A stretch of 1,692 nt of DNA from Escherichia coli (lineage in GTDB: Bacteria; Pseudomonadota; Gammaproteobacteria; Enterobacterales; Enterobacteriaceae): the NCBI RefSeq assembly GCF_003334815.1, contig NZ_QOWO01000097.1; one strand, 5' to 3'. The position numbers were made by a program, and so were the translations under genes. A model generated the notes under the pieces. The model was not told the DNA's origin. It saw only the letters and a program-made list of their open reading frames with translations, and did no database searches. This document shows, piece by piece, positions 1-1,692 of this stretch (positions are counted from its first letter, which is position 1; each line of letters starts with the position of its first letter).

Positions 1-23
1 GAAAAACGAGTATTTTTAGTCAT
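1..23 (-). CDS. IS3-family transposase OrfA, 5' partial (first 7 codons, M-T-K-N-T-R-F), continues beyond the window
   Basis: ATG at 23..21 on the minus strand, preceded by GAGG (Shine-Dalgarno-like) in the IS leader. Mirrors the partial CDS at 1673..1692. Confidence 0.7.
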
Positions 24-77
24 CCTGTTTACCTCTTTCTCAGGAAGTTTAGTCTCCAGGATTCCCGGGGCGGTTCA
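1..77 (-). mobile_element. IS3-family (IS629/IS1203-like) left terminus: terminal inverted repeat plus leader and start of orfA; element extends leftward out of the window
   Basis: Minus strand reads TGAACCGCCCCGGGAATCCTGGAGACTAAACTTCCTGAGAAAGAGGTAAACAGG-ATGACTAAAAATACTCGTTT, which I recognise as the IS629/IS1203 left end (IS3-family TG...CA terminus; OrfA begins MTKNTRF). Positions 4-77 are the perfect reverse complement of 1619-1692. Identification is from memory, not a database search. Confidence 0.8.
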
Positions 78-467
78 GCGCCACTGATGCAGTCACTGTA
101 TGACTGGATACAGACTCAGATGAAAACACTGTCGCGTCACTCGGATACGGCAAAAGCGTTCGCATACCTGCTGAAACAGTGGGAGGCCCTGAACGTGTAC
201 TGCAGTAATGGCTGGGTGGAAATCGACAACAACATCGCAGAGAACGCCTTACGGGGTGTGGCCGTGGGCCGGAAAAACTGGCTGTTCGCAGGTTCCGACA
301 GCGGTGGCGAACATGCGGCGGTGTTGTACTCGCTGATCGGCACATGCCGTCTGAACAATGTGGAGCCAGAAAAATGGCTGCGCTACGTCATTGAACATAT
401 CCAGGACTGGCCGGCAAACCGGGTACGCGATCTGTTGCCCTGGAAAGTTGATCTGAGCTCTCAGTAA
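78..467 (+). pseudogene. IS66-family transposase (TnpC-like), 3' fragment of about 129 codons, 5'-truncated at the IS629 junction
   Basis: Translation ...[84 protein letters not shown] carries the hallmark C-terminal motifs of IS66-family transposases ([28 protein letters not shown]). The frame stays open leftward to the IS629 end at 77/78, so the gene has lost its 5' part. TAA stop at 465-467. The Met at 87 used by the ORF track is internal, not a real start. Confidence 0.85.
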
Positions 468-469
468 AT

Positions 470-497
470 ATCAATACGGTTCTGGTGAGCCGCTTAC
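470..497 (+). mobile_element. Probable right terminal inverted repeat of the IS66-family element
   Basis: Sequence ...GGTGAGCCGCTTAC ends at 497, about 30 bp after the transposase stop. IS66-family termini are 5'-GTAAGCG...; on this strand the right end should read ...CGCTTAC-3'. The inner boundary of the repeat is not determinable without the left end. Confidence 0.55.
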
Positions 498-592
498 GCT
501 GAAATTTACACCAGATAAAAAACATACAGAAACAATCCTGTTATGTAAAATCCGGAAAAAATGTCAGAAATGTGATCAGAGTTGTGTTTTAC

Positions 593-749
593 GGAGGGGA
601 GTGCACTGCGCACGGACTAATCGGAACCTATCGGCTGAGCGATATCGATCCGGAAGCGTATCTGCCTCATATACTGAGAGTTTTGCCGGAATGGCCTTCC
701 AACCTGTTGATGAACTACCTCCATGGAACGTAGTGCTCACCAATAAATA
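593..749 (+). pseudogene. Second IS66-family transposase 3' relic, frameshifted
   Basis: One frame gives GGECTAHGLIGTYRLSDIDPEAYLPHILRVLPEWPSN, paralleling [39 protein letters not shown] in the first fragment. After about position 703 the homology continues only in the +1 frame (PVDELPPWNVVLTNK*, TAA at 747-749), paralleling [15 protein letters not shown]. This implies a 1-bp deletion. No clean ...CGCTTAC terminus follows. Confidence 0.6.
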
Positions 750-791
750 AGCGTCATGCCTAACTTAAAGTAAATAGAATAGCAGATATGC

Positions 792-1319
792 TTAATCCTT
801 TTTGTTGAGTGTCACTGGACCATAGACCATAAAAACACAAGTTGAACCAGATACTCCCCTATAACCTCCCTGTCCATCGCCGAGATAACAGGCAAGAGCA
901 GTAAATTCCCAGGCATCATCCATAGACGCAGCAATTTTGCGTGTGGTTAGTGTTTCTTTGCCATATTGCTCACCAAAGTCGTGCACGCGCCGGGCATATT
1001 CTCCAAGTGACTCGCTGACTGACGGATGGTCCCACCCCCATAACCAGGTGCTGTCTTCAGTATCGTAAGTGCCAACCACTTGAACAGGTGCTGTGACCAT
1101 GATCTCTTTTTCATCATTGGTGAAGGTGATTGTACCTGTATTAAGATCAACATCCCACGCAGCAGTATCAAGTCCCCACATTTCTATAGCGGCTTGTGTG
1201 AGTAACTGCATTTCGTTATTCGCTCGTGCAATTGTGAGATCTGGCTCTGAAAGAATTGCTGTGTTAGCACTGGAATCTTTATTCTTTCTGCCAAAAAGCT
1301 TCTTGAATAAATTAGTCAT
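792..1319 (-). CDS. Hypothetical protein, 175 aa, family not recognised; predicted soluble
   Basis: Uninterrupted minus-strand ORF. ATG at 1319..1317 is preceded by GGGAGAG with about 5-7 nt spacing. TAA stop at 794..792. The ORF track's 192-aa version begins at an upstream TTG (1370..1368) with no Shine-Dalgarno, so the ATG start is preferred. Protein: MTNLFKKLFGRKNKDSS...WDVDLNTGTITFTNDEKEIMVTAPVQVVGTYDTEDSTWLWGWDHPSV...DDAWEFTALACYLGDGQGGYRGVSGSTCVFMVYGPVTLNKKD. No long hydrophobic segment (no transmembrane helix or signal peptide evident). Confidence 0.75.
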   Translation of the reverse strand: MTNLFKKLFGRKNKDSSANTAILSEPDLTIARANNEMQLLTQAAIEMWGLDTAAWDVDLNTGTITFTNDEKEIMVTAPVQVVGTYDTEDSTWLWGWDHPSVSESLGEYARRVHDFGEQYGKETLTTRKIAASMDDAWEFTALACYLGDGQGGYRGVSGSTCVFMVYGPVTLNKKD

Positions 1320-1324
1320 TCCTA

Positions 1325-1331
1325 CTCTCCC
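1325..1331 (-). promoter_or_regulatory. Shine-Dalgarno sequence (GGGAGAG) for the 175-aa CDS
   Basis: Minus strand ...AACGGGAGAGTAGGA-ATG. Purine-rich GGAG core 5-7 nt upstream of the start codon. Confidence 0.6.
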
Positions 1332-1397
1332 GTTTTCTGCAAACACTTTGGCTGAATTATTAACGTTCAAATTTTGTCAGACATGTGTATACCCTAA

Positions 1398-1414
1398 CCT
1401 GACATCAGGCCTGA
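1398..1414. promoter_or_regulatory. Nested dyad symmetry upstream of the 175-aa gene; candidate operator or promoter-associated site
   Basis: CCTGA(1398-1402)-CA-TCAGG(1405-1409)-CCTGA(1410-1414). TCAGGCCTGA at 1405-1414 is a perfect 10-bp palindrome. Lies about 80-95 nt upstream of the ATG in an AT-rich region. A -35-like TTGAAC (minus strand, 1370..1365) and a -10-like AATAAT are nearby but not at canonical spacing. Confidence 0.3.
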
Positions 1415-1618
1415 TAATGAAAAACTATCAGAATAAAATCGTCATGAGTATTTATTGAGACAAGTAATTAAAGGTCATAGATTCATTTATGACATATTCA
1501 GGCGTGATAGCGGCATCGTGGTAGTGACTCAGTCCTTTAAACCCGCAATATAAAACGAAAAAACAGACCGTTTTTCAGAAGATTAGCGCATTTATTGAGA
1601 AGTTTAAAGGCGTGGGAG

Positions 1619-1692
1619 TGAACCGCCCCGGGAATCCTGGAGACTAAACTTCCTGAGAAAGAGGTAAACAGGATGACTAAAAATACTCGTTT
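1619..1692 (+). mobile_element. IS3-family (IS629/IS1203-like) left terminus: terminal inverted repeat plus leader and start of orfA; element extends rightward out of the window
   Basis: TGAACCGCCCCGGGAATCCTGGAGACTAAACTTCCTGAGAAAGAGGTAAACAGGATGACTAAAAATACTCGTTT. Exact reverse complement of window positions 4-77. Confidence 0.8.
1673..1692 (+). CDS. IS3-family transposase OrfA, 5' partial (M-T-K-N-T-R...), continues beyond the window
   Basis: ATG at 1673-1675, 54 nt inside the IS terminus, preceded by GAGG. Same codons as the left-hand copy. Confidence 0.7.

Follow-up and report, generated by a model that had tools for sequence, protein, structure and literature searches.

A DUF6882 gene among insertion-sequence remnants on an Escherichia coli plasmid: a candidate orphan immunity-type protein

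Among the systems described so far, those closest to the gene studied here are the YezG-like proteins, Imm-NTF2 (PF15655) and the orphan cdiA-CT/cdiI modules, as found in the EC869 o1–o11 array with its CdiI-o11. EsaG and YezG, which belong to the YezG-like family (DUF600, PF04634), have been shown experimentally to inhibit EsaD and YeeF (PMC9616950, PMC7033585). The family of the gene itself, DUF6882, is already catalogued; two adjacent DUF6882 genes have been described in a Fusobacterium island, and the literature searched mentions the family only in passing. What is proposed here is a link between this family and immunity, which we infer from the observations set out below.

The locus was compared with each of these systems. 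DUF6882 is repeatedly fused C-terminal to a YezG-like domain, and such fusions are found in the immunity position after genes for EsaD-like nucleases. Imm-NTF2 is the commonest fusion partner, with an Imm-NTF2-like domain following DUF6882 in 23 of 50 fusions. What the gene has in common with orphan cdiA-CT/cdiI modules is that its chromosomal copies in E. coli are embedded in an array of them. By contrast with these modules, the gene stands 206 nt from the nearest CT remnant, has an IS66 remnant attached and looks inserted, and the copy analysed here lies by a lactate operon on an IncI1-type plasmid, with no CDI genes nearby. Compared with Pfam DUF6882 as represented by WP_000182867.1, the E. 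coli protein is a full-length member that shows no difference, and the identical protein is so annotated in 50-odd E. coli genomes. We propose, with a probability that we put at roughly 45%, that the gene encodes an orphan, immunity-type toxin-binding protein of polymorphic-toxin systems.

The gene and its insertion-sequence surroundings

The window, by which we mean the whole stretch of DNA that was analysed, is 1,692 bases long, and all of them are 100% identical to positions 63168–64859 of RCS85_pI (NZ_LT985321.1), an IncI1-type conjugative plasmid of E. coli ECOR 3. The DUF6882 gene occupies positions 792–1319 on the minus strand (ATG 1319–1317, stop codon 794–792), a frame of 175 codons with zero internal stops. 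The bases preceding the ATG are cGGGAGAGtaggaATG; the Shine–Dalgarno core GGAG (1327–1330, minus strand), within GGGAGAG at 1325–1331, ends 7 nt before the start codon. A first-pass annotation of this DNA had described an intact 175-aa gene with an ATG start, a strong Shine–Dalgarno sequence and no internal stop, and the ORF list and the sequence bear this out. The peptides that it quoted (KKLFGRKNK, TWLWGWDHP and GDGQGGYRGVSG) were all found in the translation, and its description of an intact, single-domain, non-transposase gene was likewise correct.

RefSeq records differ in the start codon that they assign to the gene: WP_001312357.1, the form given for RCS85_pI, is 184 aa long and starts at GTG 1346, whereas WP_000182867.1, the form given for most genomes, is 175 aa long and starts at ATG 1319. 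A further in-frame TTG is present at 1370. The 175-aa form is the correct one, because the conserved MxxFLKKLFG N terminus starts at this ATG in an alignment of 54 homologues. Inside the coding region, an imperfect 26-nt direct repeat (77% identity, 1029–1054 and 1069–1094) spans the codons for STWLWGWD and APVQVVGT and is probably due to chance.

The gene's neighbours are insertion-sequence debris, as had been noticed from the letters: two IS3-family ends, a cut ISCro1-type tnpC and a frameshifted transposase fragment. The inverted repeat arms at 4–84 and 1612–1692 are 96% complementary, which places the same IS3-family end at both edges of the window. The first end (1–77, minus strand), recognized from the annotation and the inverted repeat, is inserted into an IS66-family tnpC. 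The second (1619–1692, plus strand) is annotated as an IS3 family transposase in RCS85_pI, and its first ORF (MTKNTR..., from 1673) is directed away from the DUF6882 gene. We take both ends to be IS629-like. The tnpC belongs to the 3′ part of an ISCro1-type element of the IS66 family (78–497, plus strand, ORF 87–467), annotated as 'IS66-like element ISCro1 family transposase'. It is cut at 77/78 by the IS3-family end, and its C terminus continues in frame up to the stop codon at 465–467; the element ends near 497, and the chromosomal matches H5 and H6 begin at 498. The C-terminal remnant of a second IS66-family transposase, with its presumed element end, occupies 572–763 (plus strand, ORF 572–733). 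RefSeq describes the stretch at about 568–751 as 'transposase domain-containing protein, frameshifted, incomplete', and we read the end of the remnant from the letters as presumably lying near 763, approximately 30 nt past the DUF6882 stop codon. An IS66 accessory protein (TnpA or TnpB) was considered for the gene and rejected, as the gene is situated past the ISCro1 end (497) and the second remnant, is read from the opposite strand and has no NCBIfam match.

Upstream of the gene, the non-coding region at 1320–1525 (minus strand) accompanies it in every E. coli copy, and the chromosomal matches end at 1525. The intergenic DNA that follows (1526–1618, unstranded) is common only to plasmid-type copies and to copies of the type found in strain 88-3493, in which it continues to lutC of lldP–lutABC. 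The plasmid-type order is lldP–lutABC, approximately 490 bp, the DUF6882 gene and the IS66 remnants, and it is also present on the chromosome of strain 88-3493. Matches to relatives of these two types span 78–1618 and 498–1618, and the match to IS-free relatives breaks off at 1618. The region 1320–1618 is AT-rich in composition (37% G+C) and gave only stops when translated in three frames in search of a toxin remnant. A simple scan for sigma-70 promoters and terminators upstream on the gene's strand returned no consensus site, which says little either way, and an Rfam search of the window returned no match.

The first-pass annotation had suggested that a partner gene upstream was removed by the insertion at 1619. 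In uninterrupted relatives, however, the sequence past 1618 runs for approximately 490 bp and then reaches lutC, and the 300 bp upstream of the gene contain stops in all frames, and no loss of a partner is supported there. Judged from these alignments, the insertion at 1619 parted the DUF6882 gene from the lactate operon and not from a partner gene. The IS66 remnants and the DUF6882 gene form a 1,541-bp piece bracketed by two inverted, outward-reading IS3-family ends, and this piece resembles the core of a composite transposon because inverted copies of the same IS3-family end lie on both sides. The flanking order in RCS85_pI is that of the IS-free relatives, which indicates two independent IS3-family insertions and not an inversion. 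We read the window, on sequence comparison, as the plasmid-type arrangement with two later IS3-family insertions. A complete lldP–lutABC operon (L-lactate permease and utilization) is carried beside the gene on conjugative plasmids, where it is bounded by IS66-family elements (L095, 11123–15573; L001, 9732–14182).

Family membership, conservation and predicted structure

The first-pass annotation had assigned the protein to no recognized family. This does not hold: the protein matches Pfam PF21813 (DUF6882) with an E value of 1.2e-33 and 116 bits, residues 39–165 aligning to model positions 12–139 of 142, and RefSeq names it accordingly (WP_000182867.1). An NCBIfam search of the protein returned no match. 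PF21813 is also the precomputed Pfam domain in nearly all of the 120 homologues listed. The homologues comprise 377 close clusters, and 2,453 representatives were obtained at 50% identity (E ≤ 0.001).

Comparison with orthologues from Affinibrenneria, Pectobacterium, Superficieibacter, Brenneria, Snodgrassella and one Enterobacteriaceae MAG gave dN/dS values of 0.06–0.14, with dS near saturation, which indicates a real gene under purifying selection. With a Pfam match, many homologues and a low dN/dS, the gene is evidently not a chance ORF. The earlier suggestion that the gene is maintained stands in so far as it rests on the low dN/dS between genera; the argument originally given for it, intactness among IS debris, is weak evidence.

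Members of the E. coli protein's own clade are approximately 175 aa long, with an identity of 50–80% from Enterobacterales to Sphingomonadales. The 54 aligned homologues share 14 invariant columns, which include W94, H98, P99 and S100; the invariant polar residues are D58, Q80, H98, S100 and Y153, and WLWGWDHPS (residues 92–100) forms a near-invariant motif. Approximately 9% of the representatives have a Sec/Tat signal peptide or a lipobox instead of the basic N-terminal tail (examples are P0100, P0106, P0127, P0128, P0150, P0176, P0181 and P0219, among others), and some DUF6882 members are probably periplasmic proteins or lipoproteins, as these predicted signals suggest.

A confident AlphaFold2 model was obtained with the 54-sequence alignment (pLDDT 89.8, pTM 0.82). 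In this model, residues 1–19 form a disordered basic tail, and residues from approximately 22 to 175 form the alpha/beta DUF6882 domain. The modelled domain begins with a long helix (25–48) and four strands (54–94), continues with two longer helices (103–119 and 133–146) that have a short helix and a short strand in between, and ends with three more strands (151–173). Comparison of the model with the PDB and an AlphaFold sample returned no structural match, and a PDB sequence search, with the single sequence and with the 54-sequence profile, returned nothing meaningful. Among the solved structures and profiles searched, none ties the DUF6882 fold to a known immunity family. We also considered DUF6882 as a diverged YezG-like domain and rejected this, as it has neither sequence-profile nor fold similarity to DUF600 (PF04634).

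Rapid diversification, a trait that is typical of the immunity class although not obligatory in it, is absent here, given the 50–80% identity, the 14 invariant columns and the dN/dS of 0.06–0.14. Such conservation is unusually high for an immunity protein and counts against assigning the gene to that class. It favours instead a conserved stand-alone cytoplasmic protein unrelated to immunity, either a small-molecule-binding or protein-binding factor or an enzyme, whose fusions reflect a shared process and not a shared function. D58, Q80, H98, S100 and Y153, together with WLWGWDHPS, resemble a ligand-binding or active site and point the same way; however, no match to an enzyme family or fold was found. 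We consider this, the main alternative, possible, although doubtful, and return to it with the gene neighbourhoods.

Copies in E. coli and the orphan cdiA-CT/cdiI array

The gene is present in 53 of 5,426 complete E. coli genomes (approximately 1%), at 55 places, of which 51 are chromosomal and 4 are on plasmids. None of the 53 E. coli copies falls below 99.7% identity, a sign of recent spread. Two disrupted copies were found, one with an internal stop (LR-24) and one that is split (Eco_70239). As the copies are near-identical and two of them are disrupted, intactness within E. coli tells little. These features, and an IS66-family remnant that always abuts the gene in E. coli, would fit a passenger or accessory gene of an insertion sequence that is functionless in E. 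coli and intact merely through recent arrival. We judge this to be extremely unlikely, because purifying selection acts on the orthologues in other genera, which lack IS neighbours, and because the gene is situated beyond the ends of the IS66 elements and has its own ribosome-binding site.

Chromosomal-type copies share bases 601–1525 of the window only, a block of 925 bp. In all four loci of this type that were inspected, the block lies within an orphan cdiA-CT/cdiI array downstream of cdiA, surrounded by VENN pre-toxin fragments and CdiI-o11. Directly upstream of the block is a cdiA-CT remnant cut by an IS3 element; the stop codon of the remnant coincides with the breakpoint, and 206 nt separate it from the ATG of the DUF6882 gene. 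On the other side, 62 nt past the end of the block, a Cys-rich ORF of 89 aa begins, the location of which fits that of a cdiI gene.

This arrangement raises the possibility that the DUF6882 protein is the cognate CdiI of the upstream orphan cdiA-CT, which is now disrupted by IS3: the stop of the CT remnant coincides exactly with the onset of homology to the plasmid form, and remnant and gene occur together in 48 genomes. Several observations make a cognate pair very unlikely. A spacer of 206 nt is long for a cdiA-CT/cdiI pair. Without the 925-bp block, the CT stop would lie 62 nt from the 89-aa ORF that fits the cdiI slot. The gene and the same 206 nt are found beside lutC, without a CT, on plasmids and in strain 88-3493, and no CdiA gene adjoins the orthologues in other genera. 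Finally, a search with the tail of the CT remnant (about 44–51 aa) against an index of 5.8 billion proteins returned one 61-aa fragment and no full-length homologue; among complete E. coli genomes, no IS-free version of this orphan CT was found. The CT stop at the breakpoint and the Cys-rich ORF in the cdiI slot are most simply explained if the block was inserted into an orphan module, separating the CT from its immunity gene. The CDI surroundings of the chromosomal copies are suggestive and may, on this reading of the loci, be incidental.

The orphan cdiA-CT that precedes the DUF6882 gene on the chromosome (L096, 7750–7881 and 9606–9991) is Gly/Ala-rich past the VENN motif and split by IS3. 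The 89-aa Cys-rich ORF, MHKNNEFYVCRVCG...ICNCCGVEFGYED, is located at 6478–6747 in both L096 and L098, and related small ORFs are located at 9663–9938 in L002 and 6472–6747 in L097. By eye it resembles the Cys_rich_CPCC family, which also occurs in a planctomycete array of small genes; such a soluble, zinc-ribbon-like product, encoded where CdiI is expected, may merit separate attention. The island that holds the DUF6882 gene in L002 and L097 also contains decayed T6SS genes (TssE, ImpA-N and VasL fragments), a 3′–5′ exonuclease gene, an Ail/Lom-family gene and ibrB-like genes; overall it appears similar to the LAA-type pathogenicity islands of LEE-negative STEC.

Domain fusions, gene neighbourhoods and the proposed function

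Fusion proteins were collected as relatives longer than 230 aa, which gave 50 proteins, approximately one-third of the top 150 representatives. The recurrent partners that Pfam detects in these all belong to immunity families, namely Imm-NTF2 and YezG-like domains, with Imm48 and DUF4259 as single cases. When the partner regions were clustered, three families accounted for 34 of the 50 fusions. Cluster A, which is C-terminal (n = 12), matches Imm-NTF2; cluster B, also C-terminal (n = 11), is related to cluster A (hhalign probability 95%, E 3.6e-8); and the N-terminal cluster (n = 11) is YezG/DUF600-like (PDB BH3703, E 0.005; Pfam). In two proteins, DUF6882 is present in tandem copies. Fusion with recognized immunity domains, a trait of the immunity class, is thus present in 34 of the 50 multi-domain relatives.

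Seven distinct cases of YezG-like–DUF6882 fusions were examined, and in five of them the fusion gene is the next one downstream of an Endonuclea_NS_2 protein: L014 (936 aa, PT-HINT), L061, L100/L101, L102/L103 and L076. The toxin domain in L061 resembles S. aureus EssD/EsaD (PDB 8GUO, E 1.7e-17). In the planctomycete locus L043, an Imm-NTF2-like gene comes after a gene for an EsaD-like nuclease, and this pair has a stand-alone DUF6882 gene beside it on the convergent strand. The YezG-like fusions and the L043 pair together show each of the two main partner families in the place of an immunity gene for EsaD-type nucleases. An immunity protein was among the hypotheses listed in the first-pass annotation, and the fusions, the EsaD-like toxin neighbours and the position in the CDI array favour it. 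However, the YezG-like half already explains immunity in the toxin-adjacent fusions, so that DUF6882 could have a different, accessory role there. Among the members examined, this copy included, no stand-alone DUF6882 gene lies directly downstream of a toxin gene.

Gene neighbourhoods outside E. coli were compared in 80 loci, one genome per species, in 79 of which the DUF6882 gene was callable. No neighbour is conserved across the 79 genomes. When shared neighbours were clustered, no cluster exceeded six members; those of the largest all come from Sphingomonas or Achromobacter and can be put down to lineage synteny alone. The neighbours are mostly housekeeping genes: a Pfam search of 212 neighbour proteins and 89 small ORFs from arrays returned mostly housekeeping or mobile-element families among the best 20 families listed, and an NCBIfam search of the genes upstream of Imm-NTF2-type fusions returned housekeeping matches only. 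Streptomyces plasmid contexts were uninformative.

These neighbourhoods bear on the alternative of a conserved cytoplasmic protein unrelated to immunity. Many members are single copies in core-genome settings, for example overlapping the stop codon of a phenylalanine hydroxylase gene in Sphingomonas, after formate dehydrogenase or beside hrcA–grpE, and there are fusions beside pufM or ubiG, all of which would suit such a protein. Yet the neighbours show no conservation other than lineage synteny and hence point to no pathway; occurrence in only 1% of E. coli genomes is the behaviour of an accessory gene and not of a housekeeping gene; and the recognizable fusion partners are almost all immunity domains. 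In Sphingomonas and relatives (L026, L027, L030, L032, L033 and L052), a conserved upstream gene has a stop codon that overlaps the start codon of DUF6882; this upstream gene is phenylalanine-4-hydroxylase (Biopterin_H) where Pfam hits are on record. The overlap suggests co-transcription of DUF6882 with this gene in the Sphingomonas-type lineage only.

Planctomycete DUF6882 genes occur in long arrays of small same-strand ORFs (L043, 1–10114; L035, L060, L072, L080 and L084), which also hold HigB/HigA-like toxin–antitoxin pairs, GNAT genes and an integrase. Such arrays may consist of chromosomal integron cassettes. Two relatives bear the UniProt name 'putative integron gene cassette protein'.

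A component of anti-phage defence, or an anti-defence factor of a phage or plasmid, was the other function suggested by the first-pass annotation that we examined. A homologue with 63% identity (L108, 2858–5558) lies directly after Abi_2 and AbiTii genes in an apparent mobile element, with a ParA gene nearby, and the patchy, mobile-element-associated distribution would agree with such a role. Against it, the protein matches 0 PADLOC families and 0 PHROGs families, tblastn found no match in 50,697 phage records, only 12 of 72,556 plasmids carry the gene, and defence genes are not recurrent neighbours. A defence or anti-defence role is consequently most improbable. The candidate of a phage gene was dropped on the same PHROGs and tblastn results.

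We therefore favour an orphan immunity-type protein, at the strength stated at the outset. The mobile, patchy distribution (1% of E. coli, integron-cassette names, planctomycete arrays) counts for it. The approximately 9% of representatives with a signal peptide or lipobox would do so by analogy, as these occur likewise in immunity families for periplasmic toxins. In this proposal, the product of the E. coli gene would be a soluble cytoplasmic DUF6882 protein that is kept without a cognate toxin gene and that would bind and neutralize a toxin domain delivered by competing bacteria. The candidate targets would be EsaD/YeeF (Endonuclea_NS_2) nuclease toxins, the sole class to which the data point. 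The DUF6882 domain itself would be the toxin-binding part, the conserved WLWGWDHPS surface could serve as the binding site, and the stand-alone E. coli protein and the fused domains would do the same job.

A bolder form of the proposal, which we consider unlikely, is that DUF6882 is a new immunity family, with a fold absent from the PDB, that directly inhibits beta-beta-alpha-metal nucleases of the EsaD/YeeF type through WLWGWDHPS, the stand-alone form acting as a pre-emptive 'orphan' shield in many Proteobacteria, this plasmid included. A family of that kind would explain both the fusion to two other nuclease-immunity families and the high conservation.

As its fold is apparently missing from the PDB, DUF6882 is a reasonable target for structure determination. 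If the immunity proposal is false, the gene is an ordinary conserved hypothetical protein shifted about by IS activity. If it is true, a widespread domain, with approximately 2,450 representative clusters at 50% identity, would acquire a part in competition between bacteria, and its carriage on an IncI1-type conjugative plasmid and in CDI islands of Shiga-toxin-producing and other E. coli would mark strains with protection from a class of nuclease toxins that they do not make themselves.
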